This document shows positions 332 to 9,623 of a stretch of DNA of 9,623 nucleotides, in pieces. A program made the position numbers and the translations under genes. Position 1 is the first letter of the stretch; the number at the start of each line of letters is the position of its first letter. Under the pieces are notes generated by a model. The model did no database searches, was not told where the DNA came from, and saw only the letters and a program-made list of their open reading frames with translations. The DNA is from a virus (lineage: Duplodnaviria > Heunggongvirae > Uroviricota > Caudoviricetes), in the IMG/VR virus record IMGVR_UViG_2802429248_000004, positions 1-9,623 of that record. One strand, given 5' to 3'.

Positions 332-592
332 TTAATTTTGAGGTAAGGGCAAACTCATCTGATTGTTTCCTTTGTGTGAAGCTGGCAGTTCATGCCACGG
401 GATACCTTCTGAAGAGTGAGCGCCGGAGGCGTGTTTCGATGTGAATTTATGGAAAGCTTCCAGTGTTGAGAAGCATACGCCGCATTCTAGGTTGTTACAT
501 TGGTAATACTTTTGCCGCACGGTGTTTGAATCATTTTCCGGACGACTGGTGCGGATTCGGGCAGATGCGCCACAAAGCGGACAACGGAACAT
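332..592 (-). CDS. ogr: Ogr/Delta-family zinc-finger late-gene transcription activator
   Basis: 86-aa ORF beginning MFRCPLCGASARIRTSR...YYQCNNLEC, matching the P2 Ogr N-terminus (MFHCPLC...ARTSR...HQCQNVNC) with the four-Cys zinc-finger spacing. Strong SD AAGGGAGG 5 nt upstream of the ATG on the coding strand (plus-strand 596-603). Confidence 0.9.
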   Translation of the reverse strand: MFRCPLCGASARIRTSRPENDSNTVRQKYYQCNNLECGVCFSTLEAFHKFTSKHASGAHSSEGIPWHELPASHKGNNQMSLPLPQN

Positions 593-2144: not shown

Positions 2145-3245
2145 TTACTCTGTTTCTGCTATCCATTCCGGGATTTTTGCCTCAAGCTCAAGCTGCGTGG
2201 TAAAGCCACTGTTATCAATGGTGTGCTCGGCTTTTGCAATAATCCAGCCCTGATTATCAATCTCGCTTTTAAATCCTGTTACCGTGCCATGCATTTCGGG
2301 GTAGAGTTCTGCACGTCCACGTGCCAGCGTGATGGAGAATGATGCGGCTCCGCGTTGTAGCTGCTGCCACTTTGCCGCCGCTGCACGTCTTGCTGCCTGC
2401 TCGTTCTGATAAGTCTTGCGTAACACAAACACGTTGCCTTCCGCACCTTCCATATAGTCACCTTCACGGCTGCTGCTTTTCTCCTTTTTCGGTTTGCGGC
2501 GTTTCACGCTGACTTTTTTCTTTTTCCCGTAATTAAGATCAAGCCAGTAAGCGCGTACCCCCGTATACGCTTCGCGGTCAGCAATGCGGAACTGATGGCG
2601 ATCGCCACTGCTGCGCGTGATGGCGAACGAGGGCAACGGCTGGCCCTGTGCGTTCACGCCACCGCCTGGCATGATGAATAACAGATTACCGCTTTTTACC
2701 GTAGTGATTGCGCCCAACATTTCCGCCATGCGCGTAAGGAAGGACATGTCGCTTTCTTCGGTCTGGTCGGCGTGGTCGATTTCAATATCCATCAGCATTT
2801 CGCTGATTTGCGGTTTCAGACCGTACCGATGAGCGATGGCGGATACCACGCGCTCAACGGTCACATCATGCCAGGACACTTCACGTTTAACGTTAAATTC
2901 ATCCCGAAAATCTGCGCTTCTGGCTGAAACAGTCAGCCTGTCCGGCGGTCCTTCGTGAGCGATTTCATCAACAATGTAAGTGCCTTTTTCTGTCAGCGGT
3001 TCTCCTTTCCAGCCAATGAGAACCGTCAGGCGCGCGCCCCGTGGCGGTAGCTGCAACTGACCATCTGCATCATCCAGCGTGATGGTAAGCTGGTCCGCCT
3101 CAAATCCCCGGTTGTCGGTCAGTGACAGGCTCATCAGGCGTTCTGCCACGCCGGACAGCGTTTTACCCTCCGCGAGAATATCAAAATCCGGCATTTTCAC
3201 GGGGTCTGTGCTCTGACTGAGCAATTGCATGGTGGTATCGGTCAT
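2145..3245 (-). CDS. D: P2 gpD-family late control / tail protein D
   Basis: Translation shares extended blocks with P2 gpD as I recall it (LTDNRGFEADQL, SWHD, FLTR, GVRAYW, REGDYMEGAEGNVF, SGFTTQLELE). Track ORF extends to 3377, but the ATG at 3243-3245 (MTDTTMQLL...) is preceded by a very strong SD (AGGGAGGGAG on the coding strand, plus-strand 3246-3258). Stop TAA at 2145-2147. Confidence 0.9.
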   Translation of the reverse strand: MTDTTMQLLSQSTDPVKMPDFDILAEGKTLSGVAERLMSLSLTDNRGFEADQLTITLDDADGQLQLPPRGARLTVLIGWKGEPLTEKGTYIVDEIAHEGPPDRLTVSARSADFRDEFNVKREVSWHDVTVERVVSAIAHRYGLKPQISEMLMDIEIDHADQTEESDMSFLTRMAEMLGAITTVKSGNLLFIMPGGGVNAQGQPLPSFAITRSSGDRHQFRIADREAYTGVRAYWLDLNYGKKKKVSVKRRKPKKEKSSSREGDYMEGAEGNVFVLRKTYQNEQAARRAAAAKWQQLQRGAASFSITLARGRAELYPEMHGTVTGFKSEIDNQGWIIAKAEHTIDNSGFTTQLELEAKIPEWIAETE

Positions 3246-3402
3246 CTGCTCCCTCCCTGTGCGGCATGGTCGCATGTGTGTGCGGGCGGGGTTACTGCTT
3301 TTTGTTGTCGCCGGGCGGCAAGAACGGCGCAGGGGTGAGATTACGCGCGTGGTGGGTGATGATTGTTGCCGAATCATTTAACGGATACAAGGGGCTGAAG
3401 CT

Positions 3403-4587
3403 ATGAGTGAAACTCGTTTTCATGGTGCCCGTGTTACGGAAAATACCGACCTGGTAACAGCGATTAACGATGTTGATTCCAGCGTTATCGGTATCGTGGC
3501 AACGGCGGATGATGCGGACGCGAAGCTGTTCCCGCTGAACAAGCCCACACTGCTGACCCGCGTCAATGACGTGCTGGGAAAATGCGGAACAACGGGGACG
3601 CTTTATCGTGCGCTTAAGGCCATCGCAGACCAGGTGAGCACAAAGGTGATCGTCGTTCGCGTGGCTGAACACAAAGAAGAAGACGGAAAGACGCAGGATC
3701 AACTGGTTATCGGTGGTTCTGAGGATGACGGCAGCTATACGGGGATGTATGCGCTGCTTGTTGCAGAGCAGGATGAAAGCATCGGATACCGTCCGCGTAT
3801 TCTGGCCGCGCCGGAGCTGGACACGGAGGCGGTGACAAAATCCCTGTGCGTGATTGCGGGTAAACTGCGCGCGTTTGTGTATGCCTCATGTCACGGCTGT
3901 AACACGATGGCTGAAGCGATTACCTACCGCCAGAAATTCAACGAACGTGAAGTGATGCTCTTGTGGCCGGACTTCATCGCCTACAACCCGAAAGGTGGCG
4001 AAAACGAAACGTTCCCCGCGCCTGCCTATGCGTGCGGCCTTCGTGCGTACATTGACCATGAGCAGGGCTGGCACAAATCGCTGTCCAACGTTCCGGTTAA
4101 AAATGTGCTGGGGATGTCCAGGCATGTGTTCTGGTCGTTACAGGCCGAAGACAGCGATGCCAACAGCCTCAACAACAAAGAAATCACGACCATTATTCGT
4201 CGCAACGGGTTCCGCTTCTGGGGCAACCGCACACCGGAAACGAACGCCTACATCTTTGAGGTGTATACCCGAACCGCACAGGTGCTGGCTGATTCAATTG
4301 CGGAAGCGCAGTTTGAAACCATCGACAGTCCACTGACGCCTGCGAACGTGAAGGATGTTATCAGTGCCATCAGGGCAAAGCTGGATTCACTGGTTACTGC
4401 CGGGAAACTGATTGGCGCGGAGTGCTGGTATGACGTGGTGGATAACAGCACCACGGATTTACGTCAGGGGCGTGTGCGTATTCGCTACAAATATACGCCC
4501 GTTCCGCCACTGGAAGACATGGAGCTTTACCAGACGTTTACTGATGAATACTTTGAACCCGCATTTGCGGTGTTGGGAGGTGCCTGA
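3403..4587 (+). CDS. FI: contractile tail sheath protein (P2 FI family)
   Basis: 394 aa; strong similarity to P2 FI throughout as I recall it (DADA..FPLNKP, RILA.PELDTEAV, KLRAF.YAS.HGC, GWHK.LSNV, IRR.GFRFWGNRT, YTPVPPLE). SD AAGGGG 9 nt upstream. Confidence 0.95.
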   Translation: MSETRFHGARVTENTDLVTAINDVDSSVIGIVATADDADAKLFPLNKPTLLTRVNDVLGKCGTTGTLYRALKAIADQVSTKVIVVRVAEHKEEDGKTQDQLVIGGSEDDGSYTGMYALLVAEQDESIGYRPRILAAPELDTEAVTKSLCVIAGKLRAFVYASCHGCNTMAEAITYRQKFNEREVMLLWPDFIAYNPKGGENETFPAPAYACGLRAYIDHEQGWHKSLSNVPVKNVLGMSRHVFWSLQAEDSDANSLNNKEITTIIRRNGFRFWGNRTPETNAYIFEVYTRTAQVLADSIAEAQFETIDSPLTPANVKDVISAIRAKLDSLVTAGKLIGAECWYDVVDNSTTDLRQGRVRIRYKYTPVPPLEDMELYQTFTDEYFEPAFAVLGGA

Positions 4588-5099
4588 TGGCTGTGCCAAA
4601 ACATCTTCGCTTTTTTACGCTGTTTGTGGATGGTGAAAACGAAGTGGGTAAGGTGACGTCCGTCACTCTGCCTAAGCTGACGCGCAAAACCGACAGCTAC
4701 CGGGGTGGTGGCATGATGGGGGCGGTAAGTATTGATCTCGGTCTGGACGACTCCGCGCTTGATGCGAGCTTTGTCATGGGGGGCGCAGTTCGTGAGCTGT
4801 TCCTTAAGTATGGCGGCACGATTGACGGCACGCTGCTGCGTTTTGCGGGTGAATACTACACCGATGCAGAAAGCGACCTGTATGAAGTCGAAATGCGCGG
4901 ACGTGTGACGGAAATTGATATGGGGGAAGCCAAACAGGGCGAAGCCACATCACACACTTACGCCATTAAAAACACCTACTACAAGCTGAGTGTTAACGAT
5001 CGCCCGTTGTGGGAGATTGACCTGCTGAACTTCATTTACCGGAAGGACGGCAAGGACATTGCGCCCGATCGCATCCGTTCCGCGCTTGGGCTTGGCTGA
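4587..5099 (+). CDS. FII: tail tube protein (P2 FII family)
   Basis: 170 aa; ATG overlaps the FI stop (TGATG); SD GGGAGG 6 nt upstream; similarity to P2 FII (VTSVTLPKLTRK..YRGGGM, LRFAG.Y, EIDMGEAKQGE). Double stop TGATAA. Confidence 0.95.
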   Translation: MAVPKHLRFFTLFVDGENEVGKVTSVTLPKLTRKTDSYRGGGMMGAVSIDLGLDDSALDASFVMGGAVRELFLKYGGTIDGTLLRFAGEYYTDAESDLYEVEMRGRVTEIDMGEAKQGEATSHTYAIKNTYYKLSVNDRPLWEIDLLNFIYRKDGKDIAPDRIRSALGLG

Positions 5100-5154
5100 T
5101 AAGTAATATGCAGGCGGCGCAGTGCGTCGCCTCTGACTGAAAAGGAGACCACTG

Positions 5155-5529
5155 ATGAAAAACATCGATACTGAAACCCAGAATAACACCGTGGCGGATG
5201 ATGTGACGGCAGATGAGGATATGGCTGTCGAACGTGGTGTAAAACTTTCCCGGCCAATTGAGCGTGGCGGCGAAAAAATCACGTATGTGGAGATCACCGG
5301 GGCTATTGAGCAGGCTGGATCCCTGCGAGGTTTGTCGCTGTCTGATGTGCTGAATCTGAAAGCGGATACCATGTTCACGCTGTTGCCTCGCGTGACTTCG
5401 CCACGACTGGATGAAGTGATGATTAAAAAAATGTCGTCACGCGATTTTATTCAGTTGTGCGCTGTGGCTGTAAATTTTATGAGCGAGCCAGACTCTGGCG
5501 CGAAGAGCGTGCAGGAGACGGCAGCGTAA
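5155..5529 (+). CDS. E: tail assembly chaperone gpE (P2 E family)
   Basis: 124-aa ORF with AGGAG SD 7 nt upstream; sits between tube and tape-measure genes as in P2/lambda (E or G chaperone position); its 3' end overlaps an RBS-less ORF in the -1 frame. Confidence 0.85.
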   Translation: MKNIDTETQNNTVADDVTADEDMAVERGVKLSRPIERGGEKITYVEITGAIEQAGSLRGLSLSDVLNLKADTMFTLLPRVTSPRLDEVMIKKMSSRDFIQLCAVAVNFMSEPDSGAKSVQETAA

Positions 5530-5693
5530 TCACCCTGGTGTGCTTTGAGCACATCGAAGATCTGGTGGCGGATATTGCCGCCATTTTTAACTGGTCGCCC
5601 GCCGAAATCTTCATGATGACGCCCGGCGAAGTGGTTAGCTGGCGTGAGCGGGCGGCACTTCGCAGCGGGAATGCAGACAATGAAGACTCTTGA
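5427..5693 (+). CDS. gpE' extension, expressed as an E+E' fusion by programmed -1 ribosomal frameshift
   Basis: The -1 frame relative to E is open from 5427 (just after a TAA at 5424-5426) to TGA at 5691-5693 and has no credible independent start or SD; it overlaps the 3' end of E and ends at the tape-measure start. This mirrors P2 E/E' and lambda G/GT. Candidate slippery sites in the E frame: A7 run at 5425-5431 and A-AAT-TTT at 5472-5478. Confidence 0.5.
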   Translation, partial: KNVVTRFYSVVRCGCKFYERARLWREERAGDGSVITLVCFEHIEDLVADIAAIFNWSPAEIFMMTPGEVVSWRERAALRSGNADNEDS

Positions 5694-8487
5694 TATCCGG
5701 GTCGCTTTCAGCGCCGTTGACAGGCTGACCCGGCCTGCCGAAAACGCCCGCCGCCTGATGGGGCAGTTTGGTGACTCTATCCAGCGAACGCAGGGGGCGA
5801 TCAAAAATCTCGAGCGTCAGGCGCGTTCATTTGAGCGCGCCCGTGACGCTGTCAGTAAAGCGGATGCGGGCATCGTAAAAGCACGACGCCAGCTTAACGC
5901 CCTTAATCAGTTACAACGCACGGGTACAGTGCTCAGCGAAAAACAGCAAAAGCTGATGCAGCAGTTAAGCACCCGGCTTGAACGCCTGAATGAATCGCGC
6001 ACACGGGAAATTCAGAAAATGCGGGAGCTTGGCGGAGAGCTGAAACGCCACGGCATTTCCCTGACAGGCAGCGATAACACCATCCAGCAGACCATCAGAC
6101 GCACCGAACAGTACAACAACCAGCTTGAACGCGAACGGCAGGCGCTTGCGCGTGTAACGCGGGCGCGTGAGCGGTATTCGCGCGCGCAGGAAATTGCGGG
6201 AAAACTGAAAACAGGTGGTGCGCTGGCAATTGGTGCGGCAGCGGCTGGCGGTTATGCCGCCGGGCGTTTTTTGCAGCCTGCGATCGGGTTCGGGAAAGAG
6301 ATGTCCCGCGTTCAGGCGCTGACGCGAATCGACAAAAACAGCCCGCAGTTTAAGGCGCTGCGTGAGCAGGCGTTAAAACTTGGCTCTGAAACGCAGTTCA
6401 CCGCAGGCGATGCCGCCAGTGGACAGGCATTTCTTGCAATGGCTGGCTTCACTCCGCAGGCCATTCAGGCTGCGCTTCCCGGCGTACTGAGCATGGCAAC
6501 GGCTGGCGGTATGGATCTCGGCGAGACGGCAGATATTGGCTCAAATATCCTGACGCAGTTCGGCCTTTCTGCTGACCAGATGGACCGGGTCGGTGACACA
6601 CTCACCGCAGCGTTTACCCGTACCAACACTGACCTTCGCGCACTGGGCGAAACCATGAAATATGCAGGTCCGGTGGCGGGTAAGCTGGGAATATCGCTGG
6701 AGCAGGCCGCAGCGATGGCTGGCGTGCTGGCGAATATGGGCATCAGAGGGAGTGATGCCGGGACGGCAATGCGTGCCAGCCTGGCTCGTCTGGCATCACC
6801 GCCAAAGGCAGCGGCAGAAGCGCTGAAAGAGCTGGGCGTGTCCGTCTCGGATGCCGGGGGCAAAATGCGCCCGATGGAAGATCTGCTGGCTGACCTTTAT
6901 AAAGCTACCCGCAAATACGGGGAAGTTGACCGGGTATCCTTCTTTAAGGACATCGCCGGGGAAGAGGCTTTCACATCGTTTATGGCACTCGTTGATGCGG
7001 CGGGTGACGGTTCCTTACCCAAACTGAGAAAAGAACTTGAGGGCGCACGCGGTGAGGCTGAACGCACGGCAAAGGTTATGGCCGACAACCTTGATGGCGA
7101 CCTGAAAAATCTCGACAGCGCATGGGAAGGTCTTCGTATTCGCATCAGTGATCTGGTTGACGGTTCGCTGCGTTCTGTCACGCAGTGGCTAACGCGGGTG
7201 GTCTCAAAAGTGACGGCACTGGCGCAGGCCCATCCTGTACTGACGCGCCAGCTACTGATTGCAGGCGGTGCGCTGCTGGCAGTGACTGCAACCGTAGGCT
7301 CGTTGTCGCTTGCTCTTGGTGTGCTTGCTGGCCCACTGGCAAAACTGCGTCTTGGTTTTTCCCTCCTGACCGGATCAATGAATGCTGTCAGGCTCCTGCC
7401 TGCACTATGGGGAATGGTGACGGGTTCCGTTTCGTTACTGGGGGGCGCTATCGGGGCGCTGTTCAGCCCGGTCGGATTGATTGCTGCTGCGTTTGTGGCT
7501 GCGGCAGTTCTCATCTGGAAATACTGGGAACCCATCAAGGCGTTTTATGCCGGGGTGTTCAGTGGGATTATGGAACGGCTGGCTCCGTTGCGCGAAACCT
7601 TTGAACGGTTCGGTCCTGTTTTTGATGTCGTGCGCGATGGGATTATTCAGGTCTTTAACTGGTTTAAATCGCTGCTGTCACCGATGGAGTCCAGCAAGGA
7701 AACGCTGGATAAATGTACCAGTGCTGGCGAGATATTCGGTAACGTTCTTGGTGGCGCGCTACAGCTTGTTCTGACGCCTGCAAAAATGTTGCTGGATACG
7801 CTGGCGTGGATACTTGAAAAACTTGGCGTCCTTCCGGATGAAGCGGAAAGGGCGCGCAAGAAAATCGAAGACGCGCAGCGTGCGGCCATTCTTCAGGATA
7901 AGGTCGCTCTGTTTCAGGGAGACATTGCGAAAATCAATCCGCCGAAGCCTGTGGAAAATGGCAATGGCACCGGAGGTGATAACCCCAAAGACAACAAACC
8001 GCTCACAGACAGCAATACCGGTACGCTACGCAGACTAAGCAAAATTGCTGATAACACAGGCAAGCTGGTTGATGAGACGAAAAAACGCATTGGCCCCGGT
8101 GATATTGTCTTTAAGAACCTGCCCCGCGCACTTGCCGTTCGTGGGGAGTGGCAGGATCGGAAGATTGCGCAGGCCAGTAAGCCTGCTCCCGCAATTAATA
8201 TCACCCCCGTGGTTCCGGCTCCGCTGCCTCCGGCGCTGGTCCCTGTTGTTGCGGCCAGCTCCCGCCCGGTGGCGGAGGCCATACGATCGCCAGTGGCATC
8301 AGTTCCTGCAACTTCCCGTAACCGGGAGCCTGTTACCTCCGGATTTGGTGGTGAAATTCATGTCCATCTGCATAACGTTGTTACGCAGAATCCCCGCGAA
8401 CTGGCGAAACTGGTCGGTGAAATGGTCAGGGCAGAATTGGAACGACGCGACCGTGCCGGACGTGGCAGTTTTTACGATAAAGATTGA
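5680..8487 (+). CDS. T: tail tape measure protein (P2 gpT family)
   Basis: ~935-aa ORF directly after E/E'; coiled-coil-like N-terminal third, a central block of hydrophobic/Gly-Ala-rich segments, and a Pro/Ala-rich C-terminus, typical of tape measure proteins. Start uncertain: ATG 5680 (preferred, GGGA about 9 nt upstream), ATG 5671 or GTG 5644 in the same frame. Confidence 0.9.
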   Translation: MKTLDIRVAFSAVDRLTRPAENARRLMGQFGDSIQRTQGAIKNLERQARSFERARDAVSKADAGIVKARRQLNALNQLQRTGTVLSEKQQKLMQQLSTRLERLNESRTREIQKMRELGGELKRHGISLTGSDNTIQQTIRRTEQYNNQLERERQALARVTRARERYSRAQEIAGKLKTGGALAIGAAAAGGYAAGRFLQPAIGFGKEMSRVQALTRIDKNSPQFKALREQALKLGSETQFTAGDAASGQAFLAMAGFTPQAIQAALPGVLSMATAGGMDLGETADIGSNILTQFGLSADQMDRVGDTLTAAFTRTNTDLRALGETMKYAGPVAGKLGISLEQAAAMAGVLANMGIRGSDAGTAMRASLARLASPPKAAAEALKELGVSVSDAGGKMRPMEDLLADLYKATRKYGEVDRVSFFKDIAGEEAFTSFMALVDAAGDGSLPKLRKELEGARGEAERTAKVMADNLDGDLKNLDSAWEGLRIRISDLVDGSLRSVTQWLTRVVSKVTALAQAHPVLTRQLLIAGGALLAVTATVGSLSLALGVLAGPLAKLRLGFSLLTGSMNAVRLLPALWGMVTGSVSLLGGAIGALFSPVGLIAAAFVAAAVLIWKYWEPIKAFYAGVFSGIMERLAPLRETFERFGPVFDVVRDGIIQVFNWFKSLLSPMESSKETLDKCTSAGEIFGNVLGGALQLVLTPAKMLLDTLAWILEKLGVLPDEAERARKKIEDAQRAAILQDKVALFQGDIAKINPPKPVENGNGTGGDNPKDNKPLTDSNTGTLRRLSKIADNTGKLVDETKKRIGPGDIVFKNLPRALAVRGEWQDRKIAQASKPAPAINITPVVPAPLPPALVPVVAASSRPVAEAIRSPVASVPATSRNREPVTSGFGGEIHVHLHNVVTQNPRELAKLVGEMVRAELERRDRAGRGSFYDKD

Positions 8488-8499
8488 GGAGTCATGGCC

Positions 8500-8988
8500 A
8501 TGATGATGATCTACGGCATGTTTGTTTTTGAGCTGCGCACATTGCCGCATCAGCAGTTACAGCAAAATAAAAGCTGGCGACATGTGAAAAATGAACGCGT
8601 TAACCGTTCAGCAAGCTGGCAGTATATCGGGGCTGGCGATGATCGTATTGTTCTTTCTGGTGTGCTTTATCCTGAAATTACAGGTGGCGAAGTGTCGCTG
8701 TCTCTGCTGGCCACGCAGGCGTATACCGGACGCCCCTGGCCTCTGATTGATGGCGTCGGGCAGATTTACGGCATGTATGTCCTGACCGAAACGAATACGA
8801 CCCGTTCCGAGTTTGATCGCTACGGTAAGGCGAAAAAGATAGAATTTTCACTGACCCTTGAACGCTGTGATGAGGATTTGCGGGAGCGCCTGCAATCCTC
8901 ATCGTTCAGCGATATGCTGTCCGGCTTCAAAGATAAGGTCACATCATCCCTTAACAGCGCGGCCAGCTCCGTTAAAGGGTTGTTTTGA
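8500..8988 (+). CDS. U: tail protein gpU (P2 U family, tail terminator/tube-completion)
   Basis: Similarity to P2 gpU (MMM..G.FVF.L.T.P.Q.LQ...W.H, ITLSG.LYPE.TGG, IYGM.V). GAGGAG SD at 8486-8491 fits the ATG at 8500 (the MMM start, as in P2 U) better than the track start at 8494. Confidence 0.9.
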   Translation: MMMIYGMFVFELRTLPHQQLQQNKSWRHVKNERVNRSASWQYIGAGDDRIVLSGVLYPEITGGEVSLSLLATQAYTGRPWPLIDGVGQIYGMYVLTETNTTRSEFDRYGKAKKIEFSLTLERCDEDLRERLQSSSFSDMLSGFKDKVTSSLNSAASSVKGLF

Positions 8989-9047: not shown

Positions 9048-9623
9048 TTACACTAATTCTGGCCATTCGATATCAGGGGCATTTTCCGGCTGAACGCGAT
9101 TCAGTAGCACACGGTATTTTTTCCAGTGTGTCAGGCTTAACTTTTCTTCCTCGGTAGCCATATCTAAATCGACAGCATCCTGCAGCATGGCAATGATTTC
9201 ACCTGCATATGCAATCTGCTCTTTCTTCTGAGACTCAGCCGCTCTGACAAGTGCATCACGCTCTGCATTCTCATCATTCACCCACGCATTGCCGTTCCAT
9301 TTCTGATAATCCCCCTCCGGGGAAATGGCTGTCACGTCTGGAGGTAATGCGCCAAGTTCAGAGATATAAATGGCTGCTCCCGTTTTCGTTTCATAGACGG
9401 TCTTTCCGCGATGGTCTTCCATCAGTTCCCATTTCATTTCATCTGCATTGAAAACGGCTGCATAACCCGCCGGAATATCAGGCGGTGCAATATCTGTACT
9501 GTTTGCAGGCAGACCTGTATGCGGCGGAATATATGCGTCACTTTCACCAATAAATTCATTGGTTCCATCAAGTAAATTGAAAACGCGGATCGTTTGTGCT
9601 TCTGCACTCATTCTGAAAGCCAT
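9048..9623 (-). CDS. tfa: tail fibre assembly protein (Tfa; TfaE-like N-terminus with a P2 gpG-like C-terminus)
   Basis: 191 aa; N-terminus [53 protein letters not shown] closely matches E. coli TfaE-type proteins as I recall them; C-terminus ([18 protein letters not shown]...PDIEWPE) resembles P2 gpG. The start codon is the last three bases of the window, so the upstream region and the tail fibre gene itself are out of view. Confidence 0.9.

Follow-up and report, generated by a model that had tools for sequence, protein, structure and literature searches.

The E/E′ locus of a P88-like Escherichia coli prophage has the layout, homology and conservation of a P2-type tail-chaperone frameshift pair, and it is probably decoded by an ordinary P2-type -1 frameshift at a variant heptamer, A_AAT_TTT, giving a predicted gpE and a predicted gpE+E′. 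Recoding of this kind is well known; here the heptamer is unusual, and the lineage carries no such annotation. Comparison with related loci supports placing the slip site at A_AAT_TTT (5472-5478) and not at a run of seven A residues (A7) that lies upstream of it.

The E/E′ locus and its predicted products

The window, by which we mean the whole 9.6-kb stretch of DNA analysed, is the tail module of a P88-like E. coli prophage (genus Xuanwuvirus, family Peduoviridae). Over the E/E′ stretch (5100-5720), identity is 100% with E. coli APEC E12053 and 97-98% with Citrobacter phage phiSM and with phages P88_4B11, 520873 and 503458; with phage P88 itself it is about 85% at the DNA level. Pfam matches and PGAP context give the gene order tube, E, E′, tape measure, U, which is the order of P2. 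The features to which we refer are as follows.

332-592, minus strand: ogr
2145-3377, minus strand: gpD
3403-4587, plus strand: sheath gene FI
4587-5099, plus strand: tail tube gene FII (Pfam Phage_tube, 8.8e-47), which adjoins E upstream and marks the chaperone slot
5142-5147, plus strand: Shine-Dalgarno sequence AAGGAG of gene E, 7 nt 5′ of the ATG
5155-5529, plus strand: gene E, zero-frame gpE of 124 aa, putative tail assembly chaperone (from the ORF list, translation and homology)
5425-5431, plus strand: A7 run, encoding Lys-Lys, rejected as slip candidate
5472-5478, plus strand: slippery heptamer A_AAT_TTT, proposed -1 site (Asn codon in the P site, Phe codon in the A site)
5475-5481, plus strand: TTTTATG, remnant of the family-typical T_TTT_TTG as judged from the alignment with relatives
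5478-5693, plus strand: E′ segment after the proposed slip, -1 frame, 71 codons and TGA (translation YERARLW...NEDS, stop)
5483-5525, plus strand: possible lineage-specific hairpin, a speculative stimulator, 4 nt 3′ of the heptamer
5538-5540, plus strand: GTG used in public annotation as the start of a 51-aa 'GpE family' CDS, which we consider wrong
5565-5672, plus strand: Phage_P2_GpE domain (PF06528) within E′ (Pfam, 2.9e-12, residues 47-82 of the -1 ORF)
5680-8487, plus strand: tape measure gene T (Pfam PhageMin_Tail, 7e-58; PGAP CDS)
8494-8988, plus strand: gpU (Pfam Phage_P2_GpU)
9048-9623, minus strand: tail-fibre assembly gene

The initial annotation had proposed that gene E and an overlapping -1 frame form an E and E+E′ pair joined by a -1 frameshift, and every element of the anatomy that it described was found where it had placed it. 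The -1 frame has 88 open codons (5427-5690) between the TAA at 5424-5426 and its stop codon TGA at 5691-5693, and it overlaps E over 5427-5526. It ends at the start of the tape measure gene (ATG 5680), so that E′ and T overlap by 14 nt. The -1 frame had been said to have no start codon, which is true of ATG but not of GTG, since GTG codons occur at 5457 and 5538; a Shine-Dalgarno sequence is found 5′ of neither of them, in agreement with the annotation. Both of the slip sites suggested are present: the A7 run at 5425-5431, where the E frame reads ATT AAA AAA ATG, and A_AAT_TTT at 5472-5478, which is in phase (GTA AAT TTT ATG). The TTTTTTG of P2 (T6G) is absent, as had been remarked, and its absence is explained by the comparison with the P88 lineage given below.

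The proposed frameshift reading is further supported by the PF06528 match, by collinearity with phage Wphi and by the P2 gene order. The -1 ORF scores 46.3 bits against Pfam Phage_P2_GpE, for which the gathering score is 23 (E=2.9e-12), and the post-slip E′ segment matches PHROG 1756 (7.8e-38, residues 1-69), with the match running from the first post-slip residue. Gene E matches PHROG 103, 'tail protein' (7e-37), is named 'phage tail protein E' by PGAP, and scores 21.7 bits against Pfam Phage_TAC_7 (PF10109), just under the gathering score of 25. NCBIfam profiles gave no match for E or E′. Homology of gene E to gpE of Wphi and P2 is otherwise supported, a tblastn comparison giving 36.8% identity. 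The predicted gpE+E′ aligns collinearly with gpE+E′ of Wphi, the E part included (BLASTP, E=1e-28, 33% identity), and the Wphi protein is recorded in GenBank as a frameshift-joined product of a '-1 translational frameshift'. In a four-way alignment the junctions VNF/Y of the window and VGF/L of Wphi (the slash marks the junction) share one column, V-x-F-[L/Y]. The Pfam and PHROG matches, taken with the collinear alignment to the Wphi fusion, indicate that the window locus is a P2-type E and E+E′ pair. In P2 itself a 91-aa E and a 142-aa E+E′ share one start codon, the longer protein being the product of a -1 shift at TTTTTTG (PMC3091744, citing Christie 2002 and Xu 2004).

We propose that ribosomes initiate at ATG 5155 and that the majority would terminate at TAA 5527-5529, yielding the 124-aa gpE. 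A minority would slip one base back while the P site holds AAU (5473-5475) and the A site UUU (5476-5478), and both tRNAs would re-pair, to AAA and UUU, the latter a cognate pairing for tRNA-Phe (UUU on UUU). The codon UAU (5478-5480) would be read next, and translation would continue in the -1 frame to TGA 5691-5693. The predicted gpE+E′ consists of E codons 1-108 followed by 5478-5690, 179 aa in all, with the junction ...DFIQLCAVAVNF/YERARLWR... (...AVNF/YERARLW...), and the predicted tryptic junction peptide for a slip at the heptamer is DFIQLCAVAVNFYER. The predicted junction is robust, because a slip of tRNA-Phe on U_UUU in the P site only would give the same protein. By analogy with gpG/gpGT of phage lambda, binding of the tape measure protein would fall to the shared E part and recruitment of the tube protein to the E′ part, and neither part would be present in the finished virion.

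Position of the proposed slip site

The initial annotation had left the slip site ambiguous between the A7 run and A_AAT_TTT. The two candidates do exist; the ambiguity, however, does not hold, as the comparative data favour A_AAT_TTT. This heptamer is the sole in-phase X_XXY_YYZ within the E/-1 overlap of the window, and the A7 run is out of X_XXY_YYZ phase in the E frame (AAA_AAA_A). Its mere presence is not what makes it significant: AAATTTT is not enriched in the window (2 observed against 3.2 expected), and by our own arithmetic the chance of some in-phase X_XXY_YYZ in an overlap of ~33 codons is about 0.13. The significance of the heptamer comes from its phase, its position and its homology.

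In the alignment, GGT TTT TTG of P2 and Wphi and AAT TTT ATG of the window occupy the same columns. Phages P88 and Chuche and a Salmonella prophage (L091) read AAATTTTTTG at this position, in which A_AAT_TTT and T_TTT_TTG overlap and are both in phase. The window type reads AAATTTTATG, where a T-to-A substitution at 5479 breaks T6G and replaces Leu by Met in E and Phe by Tyr in the -1 frame. This single change accounts for the missing T6G, and the comparison of AAA TTT TTT G in P88 with AAA TTT TAT G in the window identifies the A_AAT_TTT of the window as the upstream member of the P88 heptamer pair. The ancestral state would have been an overlapping pair A_AAU_UUU_UUG, as in P88, whose downstream, P2-type member would have been inactivated by the change at 5479. 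In the clade nearest to the window the context is [C/G]CC TTT TTT G, that is, [C/G]CCTTTTTTG.

To describe the diversity of the site we used a species-level genome scan, in which the E/-1 overlap of 80 relatives' loci was scanned for in-phase heptamers; 75 of these loci were resolvable. An in-phase T6N is present in 74 of the 75 (T_TTT_TTG in 67, T_TTT_TTA in 6 and T_TTT_TTC in 1), and the only resolvable locus that has no T6 run is that of Klebsiella michiganensis L104, which reads C_CCT_TTC and then TTG. A scan of IMG/VR gave only relatives of at least 96% identity and was used for invariance. The sequence AAATTTTATG is identical in 85 of 85 window-type loci, and A_AAT_TTT is invariant both there and in the P88-type loci. 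Among complete E. coli genomes, 526 records contain the exact 60-nt segment of the window type, with 599 genomes matching at an identity of at least 95%; the P88-type segment is found in 729 records, with 820 matching genomes. The stretch from the A7 run to AAATTTTATG is carried in identical form by phiSM of Citrobacter rodentium, a plaque-forming, lysogenising temperate phage with tailed virions (PMC6456863). Since phiSM is functional with the identical site, a signal that lacks T6G is compatible with tail assembly.

Substitutions among the window-type, P88-type and Salmonella sequences of the close clade change their codon phase at the heptamer. Between the A7 run and the heptamer (5432-5471), variation affects 9 of 13 E-frame third positions and 2 of the 27 remaining positions (Fisher p=1.1e-4), whereas from 5479 to the end of E′ it is the third positions of the -1 frame that vary (18/70 versus 10/139 others, p=4e-4). 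The heptamer lies inside the bracket formed by the end of the last run of E-frame wobble changes (5469) and the first wobble change of the -1 frame (5486); entropy shifts likewise in a wider set of 21 sequences. Within the overlap 5479-5526 taken by itself the excess at -1-frame third positions (6/16 versus 6/32) is not significant (p=0.18), a weak signal that is expected because both frames code there. In P88, Chuche and Salmonella L091, moreover, the -1 frame contains a TGA at the equivalent of 5442-5444, created by two synonymous E-frame changes (CGC GAT to CGT GAC), and three window-type loci (L029, L032 and L034) acquire the same TGA through a single change. In these phages a ribosome that shifted at A7 would soon terminate at the -1-frame TGA, which precedes the heptamer. 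The E-frame wobble pattern and the TGAs together argue that only the E frame is read 5′ of the heptamer, A7 simply encoding Lys-Lys.

Stimulatory structure and alternative readings

The initial annotation had suggested that the RNA downstream of the slip site be folded in search of a stimulatory structure. A conserved structure was not found, although a 52-nt fold of the window type is mildly unusual. RNAalifold on 17 diverse sequences gave no consensus pairs, pair counts for a 5-bp hairpin and for the 15-bp hairpin of the window were not above those of shuffled or slid controls, and Rfam at E<=1 returned nothing for the region. Single-sequence folds of 5479-5570 (z = -1.35) and 5432-5520 (z = +0.99) were not better than those of shuffled sequences, and no Shine-Dalgarno-like stimulatory element was seen in the sequence upstream of the heptamer. 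The 52-nt fold 5479-5530, which contains the hairpin 5483-5525, has a minimum free energy of -19 kcal/mol (z = -1.98, with 6 of 200 shuffles as good). The corresponding fold of the P88 type, which does not have the hairpin, has -11 kcal/mol (z = +0.3), and in a by-eye comparison the P88 substitutions break 5 of the 15 pairs; the hairpin is not conserved in the clade. As the region is invariant in window-type loci, no covariation can be read from it, and a role of the hairpin as a stimulator stays speculation. P2-like sites were reported to lack such RNA structures (PMC3091744), in agreement with our result. Given that we found no conserved downstream RNA structure, the efficiency of the frameshift may be very low.

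Reporter measurements in E. coli, in which H_HH.U_UU.Y motifs, including A_AAU_UUU, were among the efficient ones (Sharma et al., PMC4066793), allow the two heptamers to be compared. A_AAU_UUU frameshifted at 0.07% with no stimulator, 0.36% with IS911 stimulators and 11.4% with the IS3 pseudoknot, and U_UUU_UUG at 0.12%, 0.25% and 0.77%, respectively; the reporter background was about 0.055%, so that the value for unstimulated A_AAU_UUU is about background (PMC4066793). By these values A_AAU_UUU is not inferior to the P2-type heptamer in E. coli and is far more responsive to stimulators. One could imagine that the window lineage exchanged the stimulator-insensitive U_UUU_UUG for the stimulator-responsive A_AAU_UUU while gaining a downstream hairpin, and that its E : E+E′ ratio is set or regulated unlike that of P2, but we think this improbable.

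Two readings place the beginning of E′ elsewhere. A shift at the A7 run, by slippage of tRNA-Lys on the ribosome or by insertion of an extra A by RNA polymerase, would give a complete product, since the -1 frame of the window is open from 5427; the fusion would again have 179 aa, but with another linker of 15 residues (...MIKKNVVTRFYSVVRCGCKFYERARLW...). Runs of A are slippery in E. coli, where A_AAA_AAA gave 0.4-25% in the correct phase (PMC4066793), and three database proteins (P0001, P0003 and P0004) match the A7-shift product exactly, an A8 variant reading through. At 5425-5431, however, just the weak tetramer A_AAA is in phase (0.13-0.26%, PMC4066793), and a slip would leave the P-site tRNA with UAA as its new codon, while the A8 database proteins are most simply sequencing or assembly errors in a homopolymer. 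The fused database proteins as a group (P0001-P0006) join E to E′ at differing points, through the A8 insertion, T-run indels or deletions, and were not used as evidence on the junction because they look like homopolymer or assembly errors. The -1-frame TGA in P88, Chuche, Salmonella L091 and the window-type loci L029, L032 and L034, the E-frame-only evolution of the 40 nt between the two sites, and more distant relatives in which the A-run is missing but T6G persists at the position of the heptamer, all speak against the A7 run, and we give a shift there hardly any credence. The other reading is that of the public annotation, in which E′ is a separate small gene of 51 aa translated from its own GTG at 5538, with no fusion. 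All the public annotations that we examined (PGAP and phage GenBank records), except that of Wphi, give E′ in this form, with no slippage annotated, and the Pfam GpE domain (5565-5672) lies wholly 3′ of this GTG. Yet the GTG has no Shine-Dalgarno sequence within 20 nt upstream and is CTG in relatives of the T6G clade, and it lies 60 nt downstream of the point where conservation of the -1 frame begins; well 5′ of this GTG, from the heptamer on, the -1 frame stays open and varies at its wobble positions. Moreover, the PHROG 1756 match begins at the first post-slip residue, in-frame E-E′ fusions occur naturally in relatives, and the fusion is the established product in P2 (PMC3091744). An independent E′ gene is accordingly very unlikely in our view.

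It might also be argued that the T-to-A change killed recoding, so that E+E′ is lost or made at noise level and E′ is a decaying remnant or dispensable. The T6 motif, near-universal in the family (74 of 75 loci), is absent from the window; its remaining heptamer is near background in reporters when unstimulated (PMC4066793); and neither RNAalifold nor pair counts revealed a conserved stimulator. But 85 of 85 window-type loci and about 600 complete E. coli genomes carry an intact and nearly invariant E′, and the heptamer does not vary in these loci either, although the synonymous codons AAC and TTC are available. In addition, phiSM is functional with the identical site, stimulated A_AAU_UUU exceeds T6G by 1.4-fold (IS911 stimulators) to 15-fold (IS3 pseudoknot) in the reporters (PMC4066793), and Klebsiella L104 has made an analogous move, to C_CCT_TTC. 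Loss of recoding is, therefore, a very unlikely outcome of the change, and a -1 frameshift at A_AAT_TTT is the reading that we prefer.

Implications and comparison with known systems

A conserved tail-chaperone frameshift is textbook biology, and its occurrence here is not surprising in kind. About 1,400 complete E. coli genomes (599 of the window type and 820 of the P88 type), and the phage records that we examined, annotate E′ as a 51-aa gene with a GTG start, where the actual product is most likely the 179-aa fusion. A search of the literature on P88 and Xuanwuvirus at the level of titles and abstracts found no paper addressing a frameshift in this genus. The comparison also suggests that T6G is not obligatory in the family, since in two lineages the signal has shifted by one codon in the upstream direction (A_AAU_UUU and C_CCU_UUC), and programs that look for frameshifts by TTTTTTG will overlook both. 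According to the E. coli reporter data, slippage may be greater on the upstream heptamer in all cases of overlap between the two. Where an X_XXU_UUU overlaps the T6G of P2-like phages (CCCTTTTTTG, AAATTTTTTG), T6G may not be the functional element; in several P2-like lineages that part may be played by the heptamer one codon upstream.

In P2 and Wphi, gpE and gpE+E′ come from a programmed -1 frameshift within the FETUD tail operon (Christie et al. 2002, as cited in PMC3091744). The window locus resembles theirs in its slot between FII and T, in a homologous E′ domain (PF06528), in the alignment column of the proposed slip, in the overlap of the E′ stop with the start of T, and in that no conserved downstream RNA structure was found. 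It differs from P2 in the heptamer, A_AAU_UUU one codon upstream in place of U_UUU_UUG, and as a consequence the predicted junction residue is Tyr (in P2, Val after Leu). The E protein of the window is longer than that of P2 (124 versus 91 aa), as is the predicted fusion (179 versus 142 aa). E also runs 16 codons past the slip site in the window and 6 in P2, which makes for a longer overlap after the site. Furthermore, the FI-U operon of the window is divergent from D and ogr, whereas in P2 they are co-linear. The P88 type shares with the window the genus, the gene order and A_AAT_TTT at the same position; it differs in retaining T_TTT_TTG (AAATTTTTTG), in having a -1-frame TGA after A7 and in lacking the hairpin of the window.

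The frameshift of the tail chaperones is conserved in long-tailed double-stranded DNA phages (Levin 1993; Xu, Hendrix & Duda 2004, 2013, 2014), as summarised in PMC5009743. In the same account, lambda gpG/gpGT is encoded by two overlapping ORFs that have the major tail gene on one side and the tape measure gene on the other; a -1 slip occurs at a low level on an X_XXY_YYZ heptamer towards the end of the first ORF, and the products share their N-terminus, all of which resembles the arrangement in the window. Lambda differs in its heptamer (G_GGA_AAG) and its non-contractile tail, and the functional roles that we suggest for the window proteins are transferred from lambda by analogy. A parallel to the change of heptamer is found in Klebsiella michiganensis L104, of the same clade, which has lost T6G (TTTCTTG) and retains only C_CCT_TTC one codon upstream. 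It differs from the window in the X base of its heptamer, and in its derivatives L005-L008 (P0057) a tandem duplication of 25 nt has joined E and E′ permanently in one frame, so that the frameshift would no longer be needed.

Fused and open E-E′ frames

In the relative L005, the E/E′ locus carries a 25-nt tandem duplication (positions 3284-3333, two copies of GAGCGTCGAACGTGGCGGAGACGGA), which places E′, the -1 frame extension of the tail assembly chaperone gene E, permanently in frame with E. The same duplication was found in the related loci L006-L008 and in the protein P0057; it occurs on 9 contigs, which come from several samples. In these carriers (L005-L008) the slip site has decayed to TTTCTTG. 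L104, a related Klebsiella michiganensis prophage that lacks the duplication, has C_CCT_TTC.

Other 'pre-fused' E-E′ proteins are present in public assemblies (P0001-P0006). These fusions arose either through one A too many in the run of seven (A7) equivalent to window positions 5425-5431 (P0001, with 15 member sequences) or through indels in the T run. They are probably homopolymer sequencing errors, though they could be real slippage-prone variants. In a further set of relatives, from Symbiopectobacterium, Serratia and Xanthomonas (L090, L092, L127 and L162), the open E′ frame extends 400-500 nt upstream; a search of these four loci for an in-phase heptamer found none. E and E′ may be naturally fused in frame in these loci; alternatively, the loci may be pseudogenes or result from assembly errors.

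Conserved and CRISPR-matched segments of E/E′

Within the E/E′ overlap, the nucleotides of the motif GG[C/A]GGAGACGG (window positions 5509-5522, columns 38-51 of alignment A3) are near-invariant even in distant relatives, including GGA, normally a rare glycine codon. This invariance may be due to dual coding, of the E tail (...ET..) and of E′ (..GDG..); the motif could also have an additional role, for example as a Shine-Dalgarno-like pause site. Inside E′, the 34 nt at 5615-5648 have a 100% match within a CRISPR array annotated in E. coli GmM066 (NZ_CM183652.1). The matching stretch of the array is probably a spacer acquired against phages of this group.

Variable genes and operon layout

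The prophage of the E. coli strain APEC E12053 is identical to the window across E/E′. This strain carries other genes where the window has the following two.

777-2015 (within ORF 660-2015), + strand: Shedu anti-phage defence gene, SduA (PADLOC PDLC04067, Pfam SduA_C)
9048-9623, - strand: tail-fibre assembly gene, downstream of gpU

The SduA gene (matches of 1.3e-208 to PDLC04067 and 3e-31 to SduA_C) is inserted between ogr and gpD and has a GC content of 32-37%, versus ~55% in its flanks. Since a TIR-domain gene occupies this slot in APEC E12053, the slot looks like a variable hotspot for defence cargo. Downstream of gpU, APEC E12053 has a recombinase/invertase instead of the tail-fibre assembly gene, suggesting an invertible tail-fibre segment.

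The FI-FII-E-T-U operon of the window (3403-8988, + strand) is divergent from gpD/ogr (gpD at 2145-3377, - strand). In P2 the two are co-linear, whereas the related phages P88_4B11 and P88 share the divergent layout.
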